DNA from: a phage | Length of the DNA stretch: 64,000 bases | Sequence record: PZ091942.1 | Strand: one strand, 5' to 3' | Shown: positions 5,556 through 57,640 of the stretch, one piece after another | Layout of the letters: the number at the start of each line of letters is the position of its first letter | How positions within the stretch are numbered: the stretch's first letter is position 1 | Made by a program: the position numbers and the translations under genes | Notes under the pieces: model-generated | Seen by the model: the letters and a program-made list of their open reading frames with translations, nothing else | Databases searched by the model: none | Told to the model about the DNA's origin: nothing

Positions 5556-5620
5556 TGTATACTCCTTCTACATTATCGTTATAACAAAAAGCCTCCCACT
5601 GAAGGAGGCAACACCTTTTA

Positions 5621-6970: not shown

Positions 6971-7714
6971 ACTTAACCTTATATATAAGAGTTTAAAATA
7001 CAGATTTATAAAAAATAAAGATGTATATATCTGTTTAAAATTCTGATTTGACCGAGTGGACCTAGCCCCTCCGCGAGTGTTTCCTAAAAAGGGGGAGTCC
7101 TCATTTAAAAAAGGGTTATTGGCAATGCCTTTACATCCTTTCCCCACGTTCCAGCGTTTCCCCGTACCTACTCCCCGTTATTCTTTCCCCGTGTATACTA
7201 CCCAATACATTACCTACCCGTTTATTTAGTACCCCTTTAAAGAGTAGGAGAAAGGCTAGTCGCTGATAAGGCCAACTGATTAGTCTGCTAATAATGCCAT
7301 TAATGATGGTCACCACTCCCCATAGTTTGATTGTAAATAGTTTCAATAGTGATTGTTATGAGTGCAATAATGATGTATATATTAATCAAGTGGATGATTG
7401 TGTTTCTTTTAATTATTTCCTTTTTCAGCGTTCTTTTATTCTTTTTCTTTTAACGTTTGATGTTTGAGTAATGCTATTAATAGTTAACTAATTATTTAAG
7501 TGGTATATTATTACCGCACTATCTTGCTATGTTTCCCCGTGGTCTGTCCTGCGGTTGGGTGTTCCCCGTTCGTCCTGGTCTGTTGGTCTGCTACCCGTAG
7601 GATTAGTGTTATAAAGTAACAATAGTCAGTAAGATAATCCCCTGAATGTAGAAAGTTTAGTAAATTAAATTTCTTTAGTTTTCAGTAAGATGCGAGAAAG
7701 TTAGAAAATAGTTG

Positions 7715-9052: not shown

Positions 9053-9418
9053 ATGTGGTTTATTAAATTCGTCATTAAAACGGTTGTAGGCTTTTTTCTG
9101 GTCATTCTTCTGTTGGGTGTATTACTATCGGCTATGGGTAGTGTAAAGGCTGCAACGTTTTCCCCTGCTACGGTGGAAGGTTTACAGTGTACCTATTTGA
9201 TAGAAAACTATTCGACTGGTAAAAAGTCACCTAAGGTTATTATTTTACATGTAAACGATTTCGATCATGTACAATCATACGATAAGACTATTCAACTGGT
9301 AAATGAATCCACTGGTAAACAAATCACGGTCGATCACTTGATGCGCTCATCGTTAACACTCTTTGATGAGTTTATGAATGAAATGGCATCCGGTAACGGT
9401 CAATGTGTAAATCCATAG
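9053..9418 (+). CDS. hypothetical membrane/secreted protein
   Basis: ORF track; AAGAAGG SD; hydrophobic N-terminal helix. Confidence 0.6.
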   Translation: MWFIKFVIKTVVGFFLVILLLGVLLSAMGSVKAATFSPATVEGLQCTYLIENYSTGKKSPKVIILHVNDFDHVQSYDKTIQLVNESTGKQITVDHLMRSSLTLFDEFMNEMASGNGQCVNP

Positions 9419-9494
9419 GCTTAATCTTTCTCCTTTATTGTGCCGTGGTCATGCCTATGGTCATAATCTATCTGATGCTTTAAAACCTCCCTAT

Positions 9495-9517
9495 AAGCCT
9501 CTTAATGAGGCTTTTTT
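9495..9517 (+). terminator. rho-independent terminator
   Basis: Stem AAGCCTC/GAGGCTT, loop TTAAT, followed by TTTTTT. Confidence 0.6.
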
Positions 9518-9679
9518 CATTTCTAAGGTGATTGCATACCTTACTACCTTTTAGCTCGCTATAGTGCGTTTTAGGCCGCTAAATATTGCTTTACAAGCCG
9601 TTTCCTATGATGTATCACGTTCGCCCGCTCTTTTACCTCCCTCATAGTGAAAAAGTTTAAAATATTTTGCTTTCCCCTA

Positions 9680-9707
9680 TTGCAACCTCAACTGATTGGC
9701 GTATACT
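9680..9707 (+). promoter_or_regulatory. candidate sigma70 promoter (TTGCAA-16-TATACT)
   Basis: Hexamers read directly; no ORF downstream. Confidence 0.35.
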
Positions 9708-9805
9708 CATTTCTATCGGGTACGATGTAAAACATACAAGGCAAGGAAACTTGCCCCGCTCTTTAAAAATCAGGCTAGAAAGTGAAAATATTCTTAAAAA
9801 GAGTA

Positions 9806-9833
9806 TTGACAGCCGGAAAGCCTGAACTATAAT
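9806..9833 (+). promoter_or_regulatory. near-consensus sigma70 promoter (TTGACA-16-TATAAT) with AT-rich UP-like region
   Basis: -35 9806-9811, -10 9828-9833; downstream ATG opens only a 7-codon frame. Confidence 0.6.
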
Positions 9834-10542
9834 GAGTGTAGAAAGACAAGATGACCGCTCAAGTAACTCCCTAGTGAGTGAAGCAAGTCAGACGTAGGCA
9901 GGCGGATACCATGCCCCCAAATAATCGTGGGTTAACTGATTATCAAGCGGTGTTATGTGAGCCGCACGCTCTTTAAAAACATGATTTGTCTTAAAGGTGG
10001 CGGTGACGTCATTACTATAAGGCGCTCAGTTAATCGGTAGAATTGATTCCTGATTCATACGTGACGCAGGCGGACAATAAGCAATATCAATAAGCCTTAT
10101 TTGTTCGATACTTTCAAAAGATTAATGCTTGAAAGCGTACTAGATTCCTAAAAGACAAATCAGACTTATCATCTTGCCCTTTCGCATAGATTCACGCGAG
10201 ATAAGGGAAAAGAATAAAAGAAGATGATAAAAAAGAGGTTGCAAACGTGGTTAAGATAGTTCATACTAACCACAAGTTAACAAAACAACGTTAACTAGTT
10301 CCCAAATCAACGTATCGCGGGAAAGGTGGCACATAGTGCAGCGAGTAGTTCGGGAGTAGGCGCCCCGTTAATGAATAAGTAAGCCTTTAATGATGCAGTG
10401 ATTAGCAGACACTATAAAAGGCTAAAACGCTCTTTAACAATATGAATCATGATTTTAGCCTCATCGCTTGATCTTCAATCAAATAAAGCTGATTGATATA
10501 TCCTCCCAATAGCGGGAACGACGAAAAAGATTAAAAAAGCGA

Positions 10543-10571
10543 TTGACAGCTAAAACATCATGGTCCATAAT
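10543..10571 (+). promoter_or_regulatory. near-consensus sigma70 promoter (TTGACA-17-CATAAT) with AT-rich upstream
   Basis: -35 10543-10548, -10 10566-10571; no start codon with SD in the next ~120 nt. Confidence 0.6.
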
Positions 10572-25394: not shown

Positions 25395-26491
25395 CAACCG
25401 TAGCACAAGTTTTTGGATACCGTAATGCTCGTCTGGCTGAGCCGCACCCAAGCATCGCTTTTCAGTGTGGTATTGGCATCGAGCTGGAAGTTGAAGGAAC
25501 CTCTGAAATTGATGCAGACCTTTGGGTTTGTACTGAAGATGGTTCACTTCGTGATGGCTGTGAGATGGTTTGCGCACGGCCTTACAACGGTGTAGAATTG
25601 CTTCGTGCTATTAACAATCTGAGTGAAGCAGTACAAGACTCTGAAGCTGAAGGGACTTGGCGCTGCTCTACTCATGTTCATATGGATATGCGTGACGCTG
25701 ATAGTAACATCCTGAAGAAAGTAATTCTTGGATGGACGTTCTATGAAAAGATGATGTTCAAATGTTCTGGATACCATCGCTATCGTAGCAACTTCTGTCC
25801 TGCCTTTGCTGTTGTTCAAGCACAGGTAATGAATGCTTCCGCAGCGTTCAACCGAGATGGTGAAGCCTTCTTCAACACTCTTGTTAATAGCTGGGACAAG
25901 TACACCTCCCTTAACCTATTACCTCTGGCTCAGTTTGGTTCTGTTGAGTTTCGTATCTCAGAGCCGAAGTGGAAGAAAAGCCAACTCCTGAATCTGGTCA
26001 ACCGCTTCTTGGTTCTCAAGAAACTGGCTGTTGAATATGCAGATTTGGACAATGAAGCATACGTTGAGAAACTGAATGAGCTTCGCTTCGCTCCTATGAT
26101 TCAGTATCTACCTCTGGACTACACGCCTAATGATAATGATCTTACTGAAGGTTATCGTTTGGCTCGTGACATTCTGTTCTGTCGTGAACGTTCGGTTACT
26201 CTGGTTGGTCGTGTTCGTGTACAACAGACTGGCCCTGATGGTGAAGTCCTTATCAACTTGCGTGATATGGGTGACTTCTATGGTTTCTTGGGATATGTAC
26301 GGGGTAATGCCAACTCTGTTTACGAAGAGATCATGACATATTACACCCCTCAGATTGAAAACACTCGAATCGCAACGGTTCGTGAAATTCGTCACATGTT
26401 TACTTTGATGCGTGAATCAGGTAGCAGTGATGATAACGTCACTGGTTATATTCCAGACCATCTGGAAATGCAATTAGAACGACTGCTGTAA
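25391..26491 (+). CDS. GS/GCS2-like amidoligase
   Basis: ORF track; motifs GIGIELEVEG, EDGSLRDGCE, STHVHMD, GSVEFR typical of glutamine-synthetase-fold carboxylate-amine ligases. Confidence 0.6.
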   Translation: MTTVAQVFGYRNARLAEPHPSIAFQCGIGIELEVEGTSEIDADLWVCTEDGSLRDGCEMVCARPYNGVELLRAINNLSEAVQDSEAEGTWRCSTHVHMDMRDADSNILKKVILGWTFYEKMMFKCSGYHRYRSNFCPAFAVVQAQVMNASAAFNRDGEAFFNTLVNSWDKYTSLNLLPLAQFGSVEFRISEPKWKKSQLLNLVNRFLVLKKLAVEYADLDNEAYVEKLNELRFAPMIQYLPLDYTPNDNDLTEGYRLARDILFCRERSVTLVGRVRVQQTGPDGEVLINLRDMGDFYGFLGYVRGNANSVYEEIMTYYTPQIENTRIATVREIRHMFTLMRESGSSDDNVTGYIPDHLEMQLERLL

Positions 26492-30325: not shown

Positions 30326-30568
30326 ATGTTGTCTATCGAAGATTTGATCAGCCGTGGAATGACCGAAGAAAAAGAGCCTCTGATTGTAGGCTCTCGTAAA
30401 GCTATTAACCAACTCTGTGAAGAGTTTGGCATCACAAACAAGAGAATGATTGGTAATCAGTTCTCTGCAATCATCACCTTCCTCAAACGAGGTGATAAAT
30501 ATTCAATGGAATGTGTTGAGCGTATCATCGCAATTGCACAAGAAGATAAGGGAGTAACAACTCTGTGA
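30326..30568 (+). CDS. hypothetical protein
   Basis: ORF track; AAAGGAA SD. Confidence 0.55.
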   Translation: MLSIEDLISRGMTEEKEPLIVGSRKAINQLCEEFGITNKRMIGNQFSAIITFLKRGDKYSMECVERIIAIAQEDKGVTTL

Positions 30569-36618: not shown

Positions 36619-36816
36619 ATGAAAAGACGTTGGGTAGTTCGTATTCACTGGAGTAGTGGTACAGAGTCAATGGGTATTAGGAATACCCGTCAAGAAGCTC
36701 GCGCTCATAAGAAGTTCTTGTTAAGTTGTGAAAGCACAATTAATAAGATCACTATCCACAAAGCTCAAGACTTTAAATCAGGTCGTTTCTATATCAGCGG
36801 AAAGGTACATTACTAA
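36619..36816 (+). CDS. hypothetical small protein, tandem paralog A
   Basis: ATG 36619 with GGAG SD inside track ORF 36604..36816; NTRQEARAHKK...ISGKVHY. Confidence 0.5.
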   Translation: MKRRWVVRIHWSSGTESMGIRNTRQEARAHKKFLLSCESTINKITIHKAQDFKSGRFYISGKVHY

Positions 36817-37031: not shown

Positions 37032-37101
37032 TTGGTAGTAGATATGATAACTCTCAAATGTATATACAGTATAAGAATATTGTATGAAACAGGAGAGAGT
37101 T

Positions 37102-41159: not shown

Positions 41160-41337
41160 AATGTTTTAAATGTGAATCAACTCTTCTCCATTTGAACTCG
41201 AAAGTAATACGGGAGCTTGCCAAAGGCTCCCCGACTAAAGGGAAGAATAAGAAGTTTGTCGAAATTAAGGTTATAGGTATACATTGTTCAGAGTGTAAAT
41301 CCTGTAGCTTCTTATATGAAGAACACGGAGGTAGGAA

Positions 41338-42078: not shown

Positions 42079-42264
42079 ATGCAAGTTGCCCTAGTTATCC
42101 GAGACTGTGGTGATGGTACTTCTACCATTGACTTCTACAAAAACATTGAACAAGCATGTTTTGAGTGTGAAGAATTTAATGAAGATACCTGTGTAAATGA
42201 TGGTGAACCAACTATTATTGATGTTCCTGACACTTTTGTACCACCTACAGGGTGGTGTGACTAG
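42079..42264 (+). CDS. hypothetical acidic small protein
   Basis: ORF track; TAAATG overlap; D/E-rich. Confidence 0.5.
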   Translation: MQVALVIRDCGDGTSTIDFYKNIEQACFECEEFNEDTCVNDGEPTIIDVPDTFVPPTGWCD

Positions 42265-42335
42265 GGCTGGCAACTAAAGCCACCCTCTCATAATGTATAC
42301 TCCTTAGTGTACACTGATATGTTAAGGAGTTGTAA

Positions 42336-42650
42336 ATGACTGATAAGGCTAAAAGAGATTATGCACAAGAACGAAGAACTGCAATCGCAAGGGGTGAGAC
42401 CGGCGTTGGTAGCAAGAGCGGAGATGCTCAGCGCCACCGTGCACGTCGCATCGTTGAAAAGCGCGATGGAAAAGCTGCTGTCCGAGGTAAAGATGTTGGA
42501 CACAAACGATCAATCAAGTCGGGAGGTTCTAATGCGTCAAGTAACTTACGTGTTGAATCAATCTCTGGAAATCGCTCGAACGGCGGCAAAAGTGGAGATC
42601 GTGCTGGAAAATCAGCAGGCGGTCGCAAAGGAGCTTTAAGCTCAAGTTAA
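42336..42650 (+). CDS. basic Gly/Arg/Lys-rich protein
   Basis: ORF track; AAGGAG SD 7 nt upstream; NNT-biased codons match other phage genes. Confidence 0.5.
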   Translation: MTDKAKRDYAQERRTAIARGETGVGSKSGDAQRHRARRIVEKRDGKAAVRGKDVGHKRSIKSGGSNASSNLRVESISGNRSNGGKSGDRAGKSAGGRKGALSSS

Positions 42651-42706: not shown

Positions 42707-42958
42707 ATGTCTAAAGTAACTTATATCACTGTAACTGATTTCTTTCCTTTTCTGGATGTAACTGAAAGCTACACCTTCCCCGTGAGCAATGTTACAAGCT
42801 CTGTTGAGATGATTCAATTTAACCCAACAACAGCTCGTACTAACGTGGCTCTTCGTGGTCCTGATGGCAAGTTCATCTCCTTCCGTGATAAGAGTGTTCC
42901 TAAGCGTATTGCTAAGTCTATTGAAAACTTGAAACCTTTCCCTAACTTTGGTGCATAA
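42707..42958 (+). CDS. hypothetical protein, tandem paralog 1
   Basis: ORF track; TARTNVALRGPDGKFISFRD...NLKPFP. Confidence 0.55.
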   Translation: MSKVTYITVTDFFPFLDVTESYTFPVSNVTSSVEMIQFNPTTARTNVALRGPDGKFISFRDKSVPKRIAKSIENLKPFPNFGA

Positions 42959-47214: not shown

Positions 47215-47417
47215 TGTCTAATATTTACGTCGTACAAAGCGCACCACATATTAATGACTACAAATACCAAGTGATTGCTGACCGACACGAGCTACTAACC
47301 TTTGTTGACCTTATGGCTCTGAAAGAAGAGGTTGACAAGTTGGTATCAGATGAACAATCCCGGCTCTTGCAAGAGTCTCTAAGCGGAGATTACATCTGCG
47401 ATGGTTGCACTATCTAA
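47214..47417 (+). CDS. hypothetical protein
   Basis: ORF track; AAAGGGAG SD. Confidence 0.55.
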   Translation: MSNIYVVQSAPHINDYKYQVIADRHELLTFVDLMALKEEVDKLVSDEQSRLLQESLSGDYICDGCTI

Positions 47418-47560
47418 ACGATATAAAGTCTGGCTAGACGAAGGAGCTGAGTATCCTGATGGTTCTGGCTGGAAAGTGATTCTGGAAACAGACGACATGG
47501 AGGAGGCTGAAACGAAAGCTGAATCCTTCAACTACTCATATTATGAGGACACATACGAGA

Positions 47561-48139
47561 ATGGCTGAAGTTTATTTTGCAGGTGATGGTCACCTAGGCC
47601 ATCGTAACATCTGTAACTTTAGGAAGAAGTTTAGTAGTATTGAAGAACACGACAAAGCTATCTTAGCAGCGTTTGACCATGTTACTAAACGTGATAAAAC
47701 TTTCTTTACAGGTGATTGGGTGTTTGAGAAATATGCACTTGATATTATCGCTGAAGTAAAAGGAGAGAAGCATCTTGTCTTAGGAAATCATGACAGATTA
47801 GAACTTCTCCCTGATATGATGAAAGTCTTTAGACACATCAGTGGTGATTATAAGTACAAAGAGTTTTGGGTAACTCATATTCCTATTCACTCTGATGAAA
47901 TGAGAGGAAAGTATAATATCTATGCTCATACTCATAACTCTACTATCAAAGATTGGAGATACTTTTGTACTTCTATGGAACAAATTGATTACAGAGCTGT
48001 GTCTCTGCAAGAGATTAGAAAAGAGTTTGATAAAAGAAAGGAAGATGAACTTAATCTTCTTACTAAACAGAGAGAATCTAATCTTCAGTTTCAGAGAGAA
48101 GTTAAGTATACTAATCTAAATCAGTTTATTGAATGGTAA
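47561..48139 (+). CDS. calcineurin-like metallophosphoesterase
   Basis: Internal ATG of track ORF 47543..48139; GDGHLGH, TGDWVFE, GNHD, AHTHN motifs. Confidence 0.7.
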   Translation: MAEVYFAGDGHLGHRNICNFRKKFSSIEEHDKAILAAFDHVTKRDKTFFTGDWVFEKYALDIIAEVKGEKHLVLGNHDRLELLPDMMKVFRHISGDYKYKEFWVTHIPIHSDEMRGKYNIYAHTHNSTIKDWRYFCTSMEQIDYRAVSLQEIRKEFDKRKEDELNLLTKQRESNLQFQREVKYTNLNQFIEW

Positions 48140-48345
48140 GTTAATTAGTTTTCTTTTGATTTTAATAGAGAATCAAAGTCCTAGGAGTCCTCAACCTAAA
48201 TCAAGGATTTCCTTAATTCTCTATTTTTATCTCGCAGGTGTCTCCTGCCCTTCCGGTAGTCTCTCAATTTCTAACAAACTTATGAGAGGTGGTTGTCCGC
48301 GCCTTATAGTCGTCGGTCCCGTGCAATAGTTTTACTAGCTATACC

Positions 48346-48357
48346 ATATATACATTA
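48346..48357 (-). promoter_or_regulatory. TAATGTATATA-type motif (candidate phage-sigma promoter), minus strand
   Basis: Minus-strand TAATGTATATAT; no minus-strand ORF downstream. Confidence 0.35.
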
Positions 48358-48419
48358 CTGTTTGTTATTATCTACTACCAAAAAGGTTATAGTATAATAG
48401 AACCTTATCTGTATAGGTG

Positions 48420-48431
48420 TAATGTATATAG
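48420..48431 (+). promoter_or_regulatory. TAATGTATATAG motif (candidate phage-sigma promoter)
   Basis: Exact 12-mer also on minus strand at 57629-57640, both 35-55 nt upstream of a gene start. Confidence 0.5.
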
Positions 48432-48487
48432 TATACCAACCGCTCAAAGAGAGCAACAATCTTAAATTTATATAAGGAAATATTAAT

Positions 48488-49228
48488 ATGTCTATGATCC
48501 CTGAACTGTCTGTATCCCGTAAATCCAACTACGATGTAATCCCTGATGGCGAGTACGAAGCACGCATTGTTCGTGTAGTAGGTTTAGGTGTTCACAATCG
48601 TGACCCTTGGATTGACCCTAAGACCAAAGCAGTTACTCCTAAGAACCCAGCTTTCCGTATGGACTTGGCTTTTGAACTGATTGGCGTGGATGCAACAGGG
48701 ATTGATAATGAAGGCAAACCTCTGGACCCTCGTCCTGCTTGCCAGTTTAAAACTTTCGATGTAAACCCACGAGCTAAGAATTCTGGTATTCTGAATTTGA
48801 TTAAAATGATCGACCCAAGTGTTCAAGCACTGAAAGGTGATTTGGGTTGGTTTAAAGATATGCTGTTAGGTCAGCCTGTTAACATTCTGGTTAACTCCTA
48901 TGTAAACAAAGCTGGGGAGAAGAAAAATTCTATTAAGAGTATTACTCCAATCCCGACCAAGTATCGTGATGCAGTAGGTGCTCCTCGTAGCGACCTTATC
49001 TTCTTCGAACCGTATGCTGAGACTGATGCTAACTTAACCGCTTATCAAGCTATGTTCCCATTCCAACGTAACCTTCTGACCCAAGCTAATGATGCTAAGA
49101 ACATTCCTCTGGCTGGTCGTGAAGTTACTCGCGCTTCTGATACTGAACAGAAAGATGCGACTCCTAGTATCCCTACTATTAATGAAGAGCCGCAGTCTAC
49201 CTTTGAAGAAGATGATAGCCCTTTCTAA
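48488..49228 (+). CDS. ssDNA-binding protein-like (acidic C-terminal tail)
   Basis: ORF track; AAGGAA SD; NNT-biased codons; C-terminus FEEDDSPF resembles SSB acidic tail DFDDDIPF. Confidence 0.55.
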   Translation: MSMIPELSVSRKSNYDVIPDGEYEARIVRVVGLGVHNRDPWIDPKTKAVTPKNPAFRMDLAFELIGVDATGIDNEGKPLDPRPACQFKTFDVNPRAKNSGILNLIKMIDPSVQALKGDLGWFKDMLLGQPVNILVNSYVNKAGEKKNSIKSITPIPTKYRDAVGAPRSDLIFFEPYAETDANLTAYQAMFPFQRNLLTQANDAKNIPLAGREVTRASDTEQKDATPSIPTINEEPQSTFEEDDSPF

Positions 49229-49780: not shown

Positions 49781-50001
49781 TCAGAGCAGAACTTACAATA
49801 CCAGAAGGCGTTACTCAGCTTCATGCAGTATGGGAGTATAACAACCAGATTTGGGGACGAACCTTTAAGTTCTTTGTCGATGGAGATCAATCCTATTGGG
49901 CCTATTATGACTCTGAAGAGGATATGTGGATTAAAGTGAGTGGCATTCAGACAGCCATCCCTTGCCCTGAAACGGCTATGTATTTATTCTGCGTAGTTTA
50001 A
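49777..50001 (+). CDS. hypothetical protein
   Basis: ORF track; GAGAGG SD; ATGA overlap. Confidence 0.5.
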   Translation: MIRAELTIPEGVTQLHAVWEYNNQIWGRTFKFFVDGDQSYWAYYDSEEDMWIKVSGIQTAIPCPETAMYLFCVV

Positions 50002-50025
50002 TGTAAAGTAAGTTAAGGATGACTT

Positions 50026-50676
50026 ATGAAGAAAAAGACAACACCTACACGCTATCGTATTCATGGCATTCCTATTAAGTATTATCCAACCTTCGATGAA
50101 TTCTATCGAGAGAACTGGAAAGTTGTGCATAAGTATTTTATGTATGACATTAAAGATTATCACGAAGCAGAGGATGTTGCTCAGGAAGTGTTACTAAACG
50201 CTTGGCGTTTTGTGTTTGCAAAGCAAGAAGAACTTCTGCTCACTGATGAAAAAGATATTGAGCACATGACTTATCGTGTCAAGAATATCATCTGGTCGAT
50301 TCGTTCTAATCGCCAGACAGTTGGAGACCGACGTATCTACTCTATTCCAGAGGCTGATATGTTTAGACCTCCTGAGATGAATTCATGGGAAAGCCCTTTA
50401 GAGATTGCAATGGATAAGCATGACTCTACTGGAGACCCATTCTTGGAATCTAGAATCTTTTTCTTCTTCCAAGACTTAAGTGATATTATGGATACCAAGA
50501 AAATGGCAAGCATGTTCTCTATGCTCTTCCTTGGAATACCTCATGATCACATCCAGCAGGAGCTGGGAATTTCACACGGAACTTTCTATCGCCGTTATGC
50601 AGAGAATCGTGATCTATATGAAGCGGTAGTAGAGAAGCACTTTGATAAAGAAGATCTTCAAGGGATGATTCAATAA
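50026..50676 (+). CDS. ECF-type sigma-70 family sigma factor
   Basis: ORF track; AAGGA SD; region-2-like [14 protein letters not shown] and region-4 HTH-like [15 protein letters not shown]. Confidence 0.75.
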
Positions 50677-53127: not shown

Positions 53128-53177
53128 AGAAATAAAGAAGCCCCCTTCCTTTTTACAGGTTGGGGGCTTTTCTTGTT
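53128..53177. terminator. bidirectional terminator at convergence of plus and minus blocks
   Basis: AAGCCCCC...GGGGGCTT inverted repeat flanked by A-rich tract upstream and TTTTCTTGTTT downstream. Confidence 0.6.
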
Positions 53178-56100
53178 TACTCCTTAGCTCGAACTCTAAC
53201 ACGGAGTTTAGCTTGACGCTTACCTCTCTCCAACTTGTCAGACAGAGAACCACGTTTGACTTTCAACTCTCCCTCGTCATTATACTTCTCCAAGAACTGT
53301 AAATACTCTTGTCGAGTAGTTGTCTTGTAAGAAGGAATCTTAACATCAGGATTCTCTTCAATCACACGTCTAATCTTCGCTACATCATCTCGCCCTAAAA
53401 GTTTCCCTTTAGCTTGTTCAGCAGTAGAACCAAAGATTTTCTCCAGTGCTCTAGATTTGTTACCACCCGCTGAAGCAGCACCAAGTTTCGCAATAGCAGA
53501 GTAATCGTCAGCACTAAACCAAGCCACTGGATTATCTCCATATTGTTTCTTGTTCTCCGCAGCAGTTTGTAAAGCACGCACAAAGCGACGGTTATTACCA
53601 GCTTTGTCAGCACCATGAACCCTATCTAGAACCTCCGCTACACTAGCCAGCTCCTGCAAGTCTTTCCCTTCGATAAAAGCTTTCTCTGCTTTGTTAGCAA
53701 AGTCATCTTCCTGCTTCTTAATACTTTCCAGTATATCAGAGGAGGCTTGAGATCTTTCATCTTCCGGCAACGCCGAACGAACTTTCTCCATTTCCAACTC
53801 TTCATCCTGAAGTTTCTTCAACCCAGAATCTACCTTCTTCGCATCTTCGATAGCTTTCGAAGTGTCTGCATCCACCTCTACCTTTCCATCCATATCACCA
53901 GTTGCCTTAGCAATATCTTTCTCGATTGGTGTCATCTTCTCAAAATCCTTAGCAAACTTAGAGATATCAGATTCAATACGAGAGCGAGCATTCTGGTGCT
54001 CAGTAGGAGTCATGGGTTTCTCCAGAAGAGAGTAACGGTTATCCATATAAGAACCTGCAAAGATTTCTGCATCTTCCTTAGGAATGCCCTTATCCTCCAT
54101 AGAACGCATCAGGCGCTTGTGAATGTCATCACGTTGACGTTGTACTGCCATACGATCATTCTCTGCTTCCTGAGCTTCCTTGAGCTTCTTATCACGCTGT
54201 ACACGAGAGTCAATGTCGAATTTACGGTTCATCTCTTCCGCTTGCTCATACATCTTATTCCACTTAGCTTCACGAGCATCTTCTTCCGCTTCAGTGAGTC
54301 GACGTTTACGGTCGATGTAATCACTCTCTGCGTTGTGGATACGTTCAATGATACTACGGAAACGCTCTGGTGGTACAGGAGAGTTCTTCTCATGGTGAGC
54401 TGCTAACTGTTTCAGCGTACGACCTTCCTGAGCTTCACGTACTGACTCTGGCAGATCTTTCATCAGTTTCTCCATCTCCGATTTCTGAGCCGCTATAGCT
54501 TCGAGAGACTGCCTTTCTGTCTCTACCGCTGCCTTGGCATCACTACGAGCCTTAGCCCTGTTACGGAGCGTATCAAGACGTTCCTGACGTGCTTGCAGGT
54601 GTTTAGCTGCTGCTTCGTACTGAGAGTTCTTATTAGCTTTGTTGAACATGTTAACTTCACGGTTATAGGTGTTGATAAAGCCATCCCATATATCCTTCAT
54701 CTGTCCCACTTCCAAAGCATCTTCCCTTCCAGCCCTCTCTGAAGCTTTAAACTTCCCATCTACAAAATCTTCCATCATCTTACGCATAGCATCTTTCTGA
54801 GCTGGACGTAATGGCTCTGCATCAAGAAGTGTATTGATTTCACTGTGTAACTCTTTCTTCTGGTCAACCAGTTTAGGGGCATCAGCTTTGTCAATCTTCT
54901 TATTCTCTGCAAGAGCTTCCTCATACAGCTTGTTAAATTCATCATCACGTTGTTTCTGATACAGACGTTCAGACCTACGCTTCAGTGAATCCAAACTAGT
55001 CACGTTCCCACCAATACCTTTCTCCTCAGCACGTAATGCCTTGGTAGCAATATCAGAAGGCAGACCACGTTCCTTAACCCAATCAGCAAACGAAGAACGA
55101 ACACGTTGTGACTTAGCAGCAGCAATACCCTGTTGAGAAGCAAGCTGGTTACGAGCCATCTCAGCATGACGTTCAGAGTTGTTCGCTTGGTCTTCCTGAC
55201 GAATACGACGCATCAACTCTTTCGGGTCACCTTTATAAGAAAGGAAGTTCTCAGCTGTAGCTTTAGCCTTCGCACTTGCCGTATACAGAGAACGAGCAAA
55301 GCGATCTGCACGGTCTTTAGTAGCTTGACGAGCAGCACTTGACATAGCAGCCAGACGTTCGATTCCAGTAGCCGGTTTAACAGGCTCAGCCTCAACCTCA
55401 GGAGCTTTAGGAGCACGGGTAGGCAATGGCTCTGCTTGAACAGTTGGCTCCTCAGGGGCGCTCTCAGCAGCCTTGCTGGCCTCTTCTGCTTCTTGACGTT
55501 TACGAGCTTCTGAAACAGCACGACGTTGAGCAACTAAATCTCTCGCTGTAGTAACTGGTTCTTGTGGCTCTGGCTCGGGAGTTGGCTCTTCCTGAATCTT
55601 ACTAGCTTCGGCTTCCTGACGTCTAGCTTGAGCTTCCTTCAAAGCACGTCTTTGTGCGACCAAATCACGAGCAGTTAAAGGAGAGGTTTGAGGAGAGGAA
55701 ATTTCTTCCGTCACAGTAGTAGCAGAAGGCTCCCGAACCGGTTCGATTTCCGGGTCATTTTGAGTTCTAAATTTAATGTCATCAACTTCAGGTTCTTTCT
55801 CCATCGCAGCACGAGCTTCATCAGCCTGAGCACGAGCACGAGTTACTTCCATATCACTACGAGCAAGAGAACGAATAGCTTCGCTGTTAGCCGCCTGTTG
55901 ACCTTCACGTTGAGAGCGAGCACGGTCAGAACGGAAACGGTTGAGAACATGTTTAGCAGCACCAAGTGGATTCTTAATCAGAACCGGAGGAGCAGCTTCT
56001 TTGAAACCGTCAGCAGTTAGAGAGGTCCAACCACGGTCTTGGTTACTCATTAACTTAGCTGTGTTATTCAGAGTGAAAGCATCTTGGATTGGGTTGAAAC

Positions 56101-57595
56101 CTTCAGGCATACCTTTGAGTTTCTTCAAACCACCAATAGCAGTTTTCATCTCTGGAGATACATTATCAGAAAGCTTCTGTAGTTCAGTAGCTTTCTCAAT
56201 GAAGTTATTGAAGTCTTCACCATCACGAGCTTTGAATCGGTTAGCTTCATTATAGAAAGTTTTGTAAGCATCAATGAAGTCACGGTCAGCTTGAGTACGG
56301 TTCTTAATATCCATAGCACTACCGGTAAAGTCACCACTAGCACGAGCAGATGTTAATTCACGGTCAAGATTATCTAGTACGTCAGATAGAGACTTAGTGT
56401 TGTCTTTCGTATAGTCAGCCATTGCATCTTTCATTGCTACAGCTTGTTTCTGGTTATGTTCGTTATCAGCGTTCGCTTTACCTTGACGCTTATTAGGAGC
56501 AGCAAGAGGATTCAAACCCGGAACATTAGAACGATCTTCCAGAATAGTAGCAGCCTTCTCAGCACGACCTTGGTCAGTGTTCAGGATACGCTGAGCAGCA
56601 GGAGAATCCATAGCCACAGCATCAGTAACACGGAAACCATTCTCGTCCAGAAGGTTAAGGGCAGAAGCAGTGTTAGCATTGTCAGCTTTAGAATACGCTT
56701 CACGTAATTCATCAGCATTAGTAGCACTACGTATCGCTTCATCTTCAGCAGCAATATCTGTCTTCACATGATCAGGAGTACGGTCAAAGACTTGAGGACT
56801 AGGACGACTTATCAATCCATGAACCCCACCGATAGCCCCACCGTAAGCAGCACCCATCGCACCTTCTTCTACAGCACCTTCAATAATATTAGCAAGAGTA
56901 GTGTCATCACTATATTTGTTCTGTGCTTCAGCAGCACCTACAAGAGCACCACCTTTAGCACCAGCCACTGCGTTAGATGCTACACTCTGACCAACACGAC
57001 CTAGAGTAGTAGAAGCAGTGCCTGTCATCCCCGGAAGAATCTTCTGAGCTGCAAAGTTAGCACCACCAACTAAACCAGCATCAAGAACAGACTTCTCTTC
57101 ACCCTCTTCTGGAGTTTGGTCTGCATAAGCTCTACCTGTCTCACGAGCTGCAATAACAGCAGCAGCTACAGCAGGGTTAGCAACTGTCAAACCGATATCA
57201 GCAGCGACACCAGCATACTGACCAGCTGACTTCCCAATCCCATCTTCAATCTTAGAGAGACGTTCTTCTAATAAATTCTTAGAGTTCTCTTGAATACGCT
57301 TACCATAGCTTGTCTGTGAACTAGTTAGATTCTCTCCAATCTCAACTAATCCACCAATACCTCTAGCAGCACTAGCTGCAATATTAGCACCACCTGATTG
57401 AATAGCATTGGACACACCTTGAGCAAAGTCACCAATTAATCCCGGTTGTTCTTCTTGTTTCAGAGCTGGAGCCGCCTCAGGAATTGTTCCACCTGCTGCT
57501 TTATATTGTTCTCGCATCTGAGACTGTTGCTCAGGGGAGGCATTCAAATACGCAGGGCTTTTAGAAGCTTCTTCCCACGGTTTTAAGTTAGCCAT
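53177..57595 (-). CDS. large virion protein (internal core/ejection protein-like, 1472 aa)
   Basis: ORF track; AAGGAG SD; Gly/Ala-rich N-terminus, long coiled-coil regions, internal tandem repeat. Confidence 0.6.
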   Translation of the reverse strand: MANLKPWEEASKSPAYLNASPEQQSQMREQYKAAGGTIPEAAPALKQEEQPGLIGDFAQGVSNAIQSGGANIAASAARGIGGLVEIGENLTSSQTSYGKRIQENSKNLLEERLSKIEDGIGKSAGQYAGVAADIGLTVANPAVAAAVIAARETGRAYADQTPEEGEEKSVLDAGLVGGANFAAQKILPGMTGTASTTLGRVGQSVASNAVAGAKGGALVGAAEAQNKYSDDTTLANIIEGAVEEGAMGAAYGGAIGGVHGLISRPSPQVFDRTPDHVKTDIAAEDEAIRSATNADELREAYSKADNANTASALNLLDENGFRVTDAVAMDSPAAQRILNTDQGRAEKAATILEDRSNVPGLNPLAAPNKRQGKANADNEHNQKQAVAMKDAMADYTKDNTKSLSDVLDNLDRELTSARASGDFTGSAMDIKNRTQADRDFIDAYKTFYNEANRFKARDGEDFNNFIEKATELQKLSDNVSPEMKTAIGGLKKLKGMPEGFNPIQDAFTLNNTAKLMSNQDRGWTSLTADGFKEAAPPVLIKNPLGAAKHVLNRFRSDRARSQREGQQAANSEAIRSLARSDMEVTRARAQADEARAAMEKEPEVDDIKFRTQNDPEIEPVREPSATTVTEEISSPQTSPLTARDLVAQRRALKEAQARRQEAEASKIQEEPTPEPEPQEPVTTARDLVAQRRAVSEARKRQEAEEASKAAESAPEEPTVQAEPLPTRAPKAPEVEAEPVKPATGIERLAAMSSAARQATKDRADRFARSLYTASAKAKATAENFLSYKGDPKELMRRIRQEDQANNSERHAEMARNQLASQQGIAAAKSQRVRSSFADWVKERGLPSDIATKALRAEEKGIGGNVTSLDSLKRRSERLYQKQRDDEFNKLYEEALAENKKIDKADAPKLVDQKKELHSEINTLLDAEPLRPAQKDAMRKMMEDFVDGKFKASERAGREDALEVGQMKDIWDGFINTYNREVNMFNKANKNSQYEAAAKHLQARQERLDTLRNRAKARSDAKAAVETERQSLEAIAAQKSEMEKLMKDLPESVREAQEGRTLKQLAAHHEKNSPVPPERFRSIIERIHNAESDYIDRKRRLTEAEEDAREAKWNKMYEQAEEMNRKFDIDSRVQRDKKLKEAQEAENDRMAVQRQRDDIHKRLMRSMEDKGIPKEDAEIFAGSYMDNRYSLLEKPMTPTEHQNARSRIESDISKFAKDFEKMTPIEKDIAKATGDMDGKVEVDADTSKAIEDAKKVDSGLKKLQDEELEMEKVRSALPEDERSQASSDILESIKKQEDDFANKAEKAFIEGKDLQELASVAEVLDRVHGADKAGNNRRFVRALQTAAENKKQYGDNPVAWFSADDYSAIAKLGAASAGGNKSRALEKIFGSTAEQAKGKLLGRDDVAKIRRVIEENPDVKIPSYKTTTRQEYLQFLEKYNDEGELKVKRGSLSDKLERGKRQAKLRVRVRAKE

Positions 57596-57628: not shown

Positions 57629-57640
57629 CTATATACATTA
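57629..57640 (-). promoter_or_regulatory. TAATGTATATAG motif (candidate phage-sigma late promoter)
   Basis: Minus-strand 12-mer 33 nt upstream of ATG 57595; identical to 48420-48431. Confidence 0.55.

Follow-up and report, generated by a model that had tools for sequence, protein, structure and literature searches.

Between the phosphatase operon and the SSB-like gene (48488-49228) of this phage lies a non-coding region that holds, from left to right, a near-invariant block of ~95 nt (48166-48258), a perfect copy of the 9-mer TAATGTATA on the minus strand (48349-48357) and another perfect copy on the plus strand (48420-48428). The two 9-mers are 62 bp apart and point in opposite directions, the minus-strand copy facing the block, against the plus-strand gene flow. 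The whole stretch of DNA analysed, 64,000 nt and hereafter called the window, belongs to a phiEco32-like coliphage (Gordonclarkvirinae) with ECBP2 as its nearest relative, and 6 kb around the motif are 90–94% identical to ECBP2, TH42, Bas88, SU7, 4E8 and other Gordonclarkvirinae coliphages. The genes follow the order of phiEco32 (NC_010324) in reversed orientation: plus-strand genes at 7.8–53 kb constitute the early and middle set (phiEco32 genes 128 to 27), and minus-strand genes at both ends of the window are late structural genes (phiEco32 genes 9 to 1 and 26 to 20). A tRNA-Arg gene (anticodon TCT; 17927-18002, plus strand) is located within the early gene cluster, likewise in phiEco32. About 2 kb between the gp125 and gp124 orthologues (9400-11500) are poor in ORFs, and phiEco32 presents the same unannotated gap at 72786-74731; this stretch contains four to five scattered copies of CGCTCTTTAA(A/C)AAT and two of TTAAAAAG..ATTGACAGC, similar to an UP element with a -35 element.

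Promoters of the phage sigma factor gp36

In phiEco32 the middle and late promoters, read by E. coli RNA polymerase with the phage sigma factor gp36, share the consensus tAATGTAtA (PMC4331800, PMC8948821, PMC12276001), for which the evidence comprises primer extension, in vitro transcription and a cryo-EM open complex. Six of these promoters have been reported, those of genes 6, 13 and 26 (late) and of genes 40, 58 and 68 (middle), with transcription starting 6–8 nt 3′ of the motif (PMC4331800, PMC4281155, PMC8948821). The same six promoter sequences are given for phiEco32, NJ01, ECBP2, KBNP1711, SU10 and 172-1 in Table S3 of PMC8948821. The open complex, reported in 2025, was determined on P68, with AATGTA centred at -11.5; gp36 contacts -14A and -13A through N95 and S91 and the A opposite -12T through S94, stacks W90 on the -12 pair, and binds -11G, the first unwound base, through E79 and H80 (PMC12276001). 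Further upstream at P68, the gp36 C-terminal domain uses R187 and Y186 to contact -37G and the T opposite -34A; its binding to the promoter is stabilised by a second phage protein, gp79, which also displaces region 4 of sigma70 (PMC12276001). P26 is also transcribed in vitro by the gp36 holoenzyme (PMC12276001).

The 12-mer TAATGTATATAG was found exactly twice in the window, at 48420-48431 (+) and 57629-57640 (-), with 0.01 copies expected and none of 100 dinucleotide shuffles holding two or more, and the view of the initial annotation that such a recurrence is unlikely to arise by chance was upheld. The 9-mer TAATGTATA occurs four times, at 42291 (+), 48349 (-), 48420 (+) and 57632 (-), against an expectation of 0.51 (none of 100 shuffles with at least four). 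When one mismatch was allowed, AAATGTATA at 37056 (+) and TAATGTAGA at 5567 (-) were added, amid many non-specific matches. All six sites are intergenic and retain the AATGTA core, and five of them lie in the correct orientation 13–53 nt 5′ of genes, by the listed ORF starts. The 3′ TAG of the 12-mer is outside the conserved element: P58 continues with CTC and P40 of the phiEco32 type with CTA, and P40 and P26 have the TAG extension in common in the window, in ECBP2 and SU7 and in further close relatives, whereas phiEco32-type genomes lack it.

Recurrence of the motif by chance in AT-rich intergenic DNA has next to no probability, being refuted by conservation and orthology. The 8-mer AATGTATA alone is only weakly enriched (six copies against 2.6 expected), and single-mismatch copies do occur unconserved inside genes, as at 41278 (-), but the counts of the 9-mer and the 12-mer exceed those of all shuffles, every copy is intergenic, the motif stays invariant across relatives while its flanks diverge, and the sites are orthologous to mapped promoters. 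Two further matches were rejected as sites, CAATGTATA at 41278 (-), which falls in coding sequence and is unconserved even in ECBP2, and TAATGTATT at 7204 (-), where phiEco32 reads TAATGAATA.

Positional orthology to mapped promoters holds for P6, P26, P40, P58 and P68, and the counterpart of P13 lies in the part of the genome beyond the window. P40, a middle promoter, carries an exact match at 48420-48428 (+), is the positional orthologue of phiEco32 P40 and is invariant in all 18 aligned relatives; its predicted start at ~48435, derived from AATGTA centred at -11.5 (PMC12276001), lies 53 nt 5′ of the SSB-like gene. In phiEco32-type genomes the P40 motif is embedded in a perfect palindrome, ATGTATA-C-TATACAT (phiEco32 36622-36640), which places a one-mismatch copy of the motif (TTATGTATA) on the opposite strand; the clade of the window does not have this palindrome. 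P26, a late promoter, is represented by the perfect 9-mer at 57632-57640 (-), orthologous to phiEco32 26014-26022, with a predicted start at ~57625, 30 nt 5′ of the gene for a 1472-aa virion protein (53177-57595), and with motif and leader kept in relatives. The distance of 33 nt first noted between the 12-mer and this 4.4-kb gene is accurate, the motif ending at 57629 and the ATG lying at 57595. For the middle promoter P58, the perfect 9-mer at 42291-42299 (+) (phiEco32 42937-42945) is found 37 nt 5′ of the gene at 42336, and the predicted start at ~42306 would give a leader of 30 nt. Its motif and leader are conserved to invariant among genomes that are unrelated upstream of ~-16 and near-identical from the motif on, and a mosaic junction consequently coincides exactly with the promoter (42200-42300).

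The two remaining sites deviate from the consensus in the same way as their phiEco32 counterparts. P68 (middle; 37056-37064, plus strand) reads AAATGTATA, an aAATGTATA deviation also present in phiEco32 and relatives, with a predicted start at ~37071. P6 (late; 5567-5575, minus strand) reads TAATGTAGA and corresponds to phiEco32 1677-1685, with the same TAATGTAgA (Table S3 of PMC8948821). This site is immediately 3′ of a terminator-like hairpin with a T-run, and at the usual 7-nt spacing transcription would begin at ~5560, giving a leader of only ~5 nt ahead of the gp6 orthologue's ATG and leaving the AGGAG Shine-Dalgarno sequence upstream of the start; its main role may be to serve the downstream terminase genes.

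The list of sites in the initial annotation was therefore partly accurate. The variants at 37057-37067, where AAATGTATA occupies 37056-37064, and at 48346-48357 (-), with its perfect TAATGTATA at 48349-48357, are real. Two other entries were spurious: 14471-14486 reads TAATGAcTGTATATAG, in which the motif is split by 2 nt inside a hairpin loop, and 7368-7382 reads TGATGTATA, with a G at the gp36-contacted position -14 and TGATATATG as the phiEco32 orthologue. The perfect site at 42291-42299 (+) and the site at 5567-5575 (-) had been omitted. The proposed position upstream of genes of the middle and late classes was borne out at P6, P26, P40, P58 and P68 and failed at 48349-48357 (-), which has no gene downstream, and the phiEco32-like late element TAATGTATA named there does exist, with a class that comprises middle as well as late promoters.

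Both the sigma factor that reads this promoter class in phiEco32 and its helper gp79 are encoded in the window. The gp36 orthologue (50026-50676, plus strand) shares 81% identity with gp36 and matches chain F of PDB 9m7y (E = 2e-119), and every listed DNA-contact residue is conserved (E79, H80, Y83, R84, W90, S91, S94, N95, Y186 and R187). The gp79 orthologue (30326-30568, plus strand) shows 76% identity (PDB 9m7y chain G, E = 5e-38). Whole-sequence phmmer matches of residues ~46–78 of the latter to TAL-effector repeat proteins reached E values down to 2e-12; no single stretch exceeded the threshold, so that the likeness may be a compositional artefact. The sequence TAATGTAAA at 49999-50007 (+) also has an intact AATGTA core; it overlaps the stop of the upstream ORF, lies 18 nt 5′ of the ATG of the sigma gene (50026) and is conserved in close relatives only (ECBP2, 4E8, SU7), making it a weak candidate for a possible autoregulatory promoter of that gene.

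The gene at 50026-50676 had been described as an ECF-type sigma factor. It is indeed a phage sigma, whereas "ECF-type" is a database label and not a tested classification, since the Pfam match to Sigma70_r2 fell below the gathering score; no region-4 match was obtained in the same Pfam search. The published work describes gp36 as a distant sigma70-family homologue. Bacterial ECF (group 4) sigma factors share with it the two domains (sigma2-like and sigma4-like), and databases and the PDB entry name gp36 an "ECF sigma factor", but the -35 AAC and -10 CGT motifs typical of ECF promoters are absent here, and the gp36 C-terminal domain, in which one helix is shortened, engages the flap-tip helix in a different way (PMC12276001).

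The suggestion that the motif marks promoters for a phage-encoded sigma factor agrees with the published gp36-holoenzyme consensus. Use of the same sites by host sigma70, alone or together with gp36, is most improbable. The AT-rich motif, with TG followed by TATA (TG-T-ATATA), does resemble an extended -10 element, and both holoenzymes were proposed for the middle genes in the SU10 genome paper (PMC4281155), but transcription in vitro places the promoters under the gp36 holoenzyme, and sigma70 is shut off by gp79 (PMC12276001, PMC8948821). In the window a TATAAT is present 21 nt upstream of the P40 motif; it is unconserved, phiEco32-type genomes having TATTATATAG, and no TTGACA-like -35 element is found at the right distance. 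In line with the lack of sigma70 likeness claimed at the outset, a consensus scan of 47400-48700 returned only three weak matches, where 3.8 were expected, and none of them coincided with a motif site on the right strand; no plus-strand promoter was called at P40, and the region did not rise above shuffle level.

On sequence evidence, the motif very probably serves this phiEco32-like phage as the -10-like element of its middle and late promoters. Its identity is already known, also for ECBP2, the near-twin of this phage: Table S3 of PMC8948821 holds the same sequences, and the earlier interpretation is right on a known feature. Compared with phiEco32, the 9-mer (including the deviations at P6 and P68), the positions before orthologous genes, the sigma factor with its contact residues, the gp79 co-factor and the P68 -35 element TGGTAGTAGATA are the same, and nothing essential differs at the five sites. 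The late promoters of T4 (TATAAATA, gp55) are similar in having a short AT-rich single -10-type element, a small phage sigma-like protein, the host core enzyme and a phage co-activator, but they rely on unrelated proteins (gp55, gp33 and the sliding clamp), lack a -35 contact and have another consensus. Phage 7-11, whose sigma factor gp47 also works on host core RNA polymerase, has late promoters at similar genome positions, for instance before the SSB-like gene, but with a bipartite consensus of its own, GTAAtg-(16)-aCTA, a sigma only ~15% identical, no gp79 and no middle class (PMC8948821).

Initiation at the motif sites of this phage would proceed as in phiEco32, from which the start sites are extrapolated. 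The early genes would be transcribed with host sigma70, after which gp36 and gp79 would be made. The N-terminal domain of gp36 would then read AATGTA from -14 to -9, with -14A, -13A and -12T recognised in the duplex, W90 acting as a wedge at -12 and -11G captured unwound, and its C-terminal domain would touch the -35 region (-37G and -34A at P68). Meanwhile gp79 would oust region 4 of sigma70 and stabilise the gp36 C-terminal domain, and transcription would start ~7 nt 3′ of the 9-mer.

A divergent seventh site upstream of P40

The minus-strand site at 48349-48357 is a perfect -10-like element whose predicted start, at ~48342, would direct transcription leftward, where no gene is present on the minus strand. 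It was kept in 24 of 25 relatives (18 of 18 aligned genomes, which span Kuravirus, Suseptimavirus and Nieuwekanaalvirus, and six of seven further metagenomic ones), and its phiEco32 counterpart is at 36704-36712 (+). The exception, the metagenomic sequence L120, reads TAATATATA (positions 1241-1249), in which -11G is replaced by A and the contact made by gp36 E79 and H80 is lost; its conserved block is intact. The site is missing from the published six-promoter lists, Table S3 of PMC8948821 included. No published mapping of the phiEco32 site was found, nor any report of an antisense start in phiEco32 in the literature, and no RNA is annotated at this locus in the sequence records. In the relatives L006, L017 and L116-L120, an insertion of ~130 nt separates the divergent site from P40, and the -35 element there reads TGGTAGTATATC; in EcM-vB1 a 47-aa CDS is annotated in the ~130-nt insertion between the divergent motifs.

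The -35 region of the divergent site is that of P68. The same 12-mer TGGTAGTAGATA is found at 37033-37044 (+), where it covers -38 to -27 of P68, and at 48369-48380 (-), in both cases with G at -37 and A at -34 and with an identical 15-nt spacing to the -10-like element. The bases at -37 and -34 are also G and A at P58 and P6, A and A at P26, and T and A at P40; the -35 region differs at P40 and P26 and is not conserved at P58, which is unrelated upstream of ~-16, so that a specific -35 sequence is not general among these promoters. The composite of TGGTAGTAGATA and the -10-like pattern occurs in two places only in the window, P68 and the divergent site, against 0.02 expected, and at these two sites only in the Kuravirus genomes examined. 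A scan of IMG/VR with the pattern GGTAGTAG-N14-16-AATGTATA retrieved mostly unrelated chance matches, together with two exact matches in each of three Kuravirus contigs, one in phiEco32 and one in a single metagenomic contig; P68 of phiEco32, read directly, also has the -35 and -10-like element. From its sequence, the site at 48349-48357 is most likely a seventh gp36-dependent promoter that would fire leftward into the conserved non-coding block. What is new here is this conserved and unlisted seventh copy, facing backwards into an unusually conserved non-coding stretch.

The conserved block and a putative leftward RNA

The block at 48166-48258 is downstream of the divergent site on the minus strand. 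Across 20.7 kb aligned from five genomes, its segment 48171-48250 ties for the most conserved 80 nt (0.97, the mean being 0.67; 99.9th percentile), and differences among relatives are confined to a few substitutions and indels of 1–3 nt, the latter indicating that the block is not coding. On the minus strand it comprises a GCAGG/CCTGC hairpin and a long stem-loop (AAUAGAGAAUUAAGG...CUUUGAUUCUCUAUU), and it contains a long inverted repeat (ATAGAGAAT/ATTCTCTAT) as well as the palindromes TCCTAGGA and AAGGA(T)TTCCTT. At the opposite end of the putative leftward transcript, a 5′-terminal hairpin is predicted at 48320-48342 (-), beginning at +1 and reading AUAGCU-AGUAA-AACUAU in the window. Between hairpin and block (48259-48330), a segment of 50–80 nt exists in two unrelated alleles, a long form in the window, ECBP2, MN05, EcM-vB1 and one metagenomic contig, and a short form in phiEco32, SU7 and others; this distribution departs from overall relatedness and suggests recombination at the conserved flanks.

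Two pairs of the 5′ hairpin stem show compensatory changes (UA to GC; CG to UA or AU), and a GC to GU change was observed in seven sequences. The covariation score of 0.056, with the two compensatory pairs in seven cells, exceeds those of all 500 shuffles at a low sequence diversity, too low for covariation because the element is confined to Gordonclarkvirinae. The three 3′ helices are invariant except for one AU to GU change, and covariation is uninformative on helices that never vary. The 203-nt region folds with z = -3.75 on the minus strand and z = -1.53 on the plus strand, the 5′ hairpin is predicted on the minus strand only, and for the block alone the strand asymmetry of the fold is small and is absent in phiEco32. 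Taken as predictions, the folds modestly favour the minus strand.

The block may instead act in plus-strand mRNA reading through from the upstream middle genes, as a terminator or as an RNase III-type processing or stability element that parts the upstream operon from the P40 unit, with no functional RNA made from 48349-48357 (-). This explanation is regarded as unlikely, if deserving of some weight. A 10-bp stem (AAUAGAGAAU/AUUCUCUAUU) followed by UUUUUAU is present on the plus strand, yet the terminator scan made no call there, and near-invariance over ~95 nt, loops included, goes far beyond what a terminator needs. Plus-strand folds do beat shuffles (z = -2.8 for the window, z = -2.6 for phiEco32), but consensus folding gives the better value for the minus strand (-31.5 against -24.3 kcal/mol), and four positions, two each in the long stem and the 5′ hairpin, have G.U pairs that would turn into A.C mismatches on the plus strand. 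Other gp36 promoters are also situated just 3′ of terminator-like hairpins (P6 in the window and P13 in phiEco32). The plus-strand reading leaves unexplained why a full P68-type promoter facing the block is conserved.

A DNA-level element made up of the divergent promoter pair and the block, such as a transcription-activated replication origin or a protein-binding site, is a distinctly more doubtful proposition. It draws on the two palindromes, whose centres are too short for RNA hairpins, and on the placement of divergent promoters around an AT-rich spacer beside the SSB-like gene; the primary origin of T7 depends on nearby promoters. GC skew, however, tracks gene orientation only and does not switch at 48.3 kb, neither iterons nor repeated copies turned up, some relatives tolerate the ~130-nt insertion between both promoters, and more distant relatives with the same replication genes do not have the element. 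No location of a replication origin was found in the literature consulted. Grimontviridae and Lahexavirus phages and a metagenomic relative at 63% identity, sought as more diverged genomes that might add covariation, are without the long intergenic region, the motif and the block. In the 7-11-like, GAP52-like and Lahexavirus relatives examined, the SSB gene is preceded by a short intergenic region that has neither divergent site nor block.

A non-coding RNA is preferred over both the plus-strand and the DNA-level element. It is proposed, tentatively and at somewhat less than even confidence, that the promoter at 48349-48357 (-) makes a small structured RNA of ~165–195 nt in the middle to late phase, starting at ~48342, comprising the 5′ hairpin and the block, and specific to Gordonclarkvirinae. 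Terminator scanning and folding of the minus strand gave no clear terminator for such a transcript. Rfam 15 reported only the tRNA-Arg in the whole window at the gathering threshold, and a permissive scan of 47900-48600 returned only sub-threshold chance matches. A similarity search with the 196-nt candidate RNA gave no match in 5,426 E. coli genomes, which argues against a host mimic or target of appreciable length, and a search of the window for trans complementarity of at least 11 nt or for paralogous copies gave chance-level matches only, located in the variable segment. Possible roles of the putative RNA include regulation, replication priming and transcriptional interference with upstream read-through.

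Meaning for the gp36 regulon

Regarding the motif itself, nothing is added beyond Pavlova 2012, Lavysh 2022 and Xu 2025. For annotation, the middle and late transcription units of this phage can be drawn with confidence, and the BPROM-style "promoter" features in related GenBank records are corrected by this assignment. The item worth an experiment is the unlisted divergent site together with the ultra-conserved non-coding block that it faces. If transcribed, the site would provide a simple way to ask in vitro whether TGGTAGTAGATA marks out a -35-dependent subclass among gp36 promoters, and the gp36 regulon would gain its first assigned non-coding RNA.
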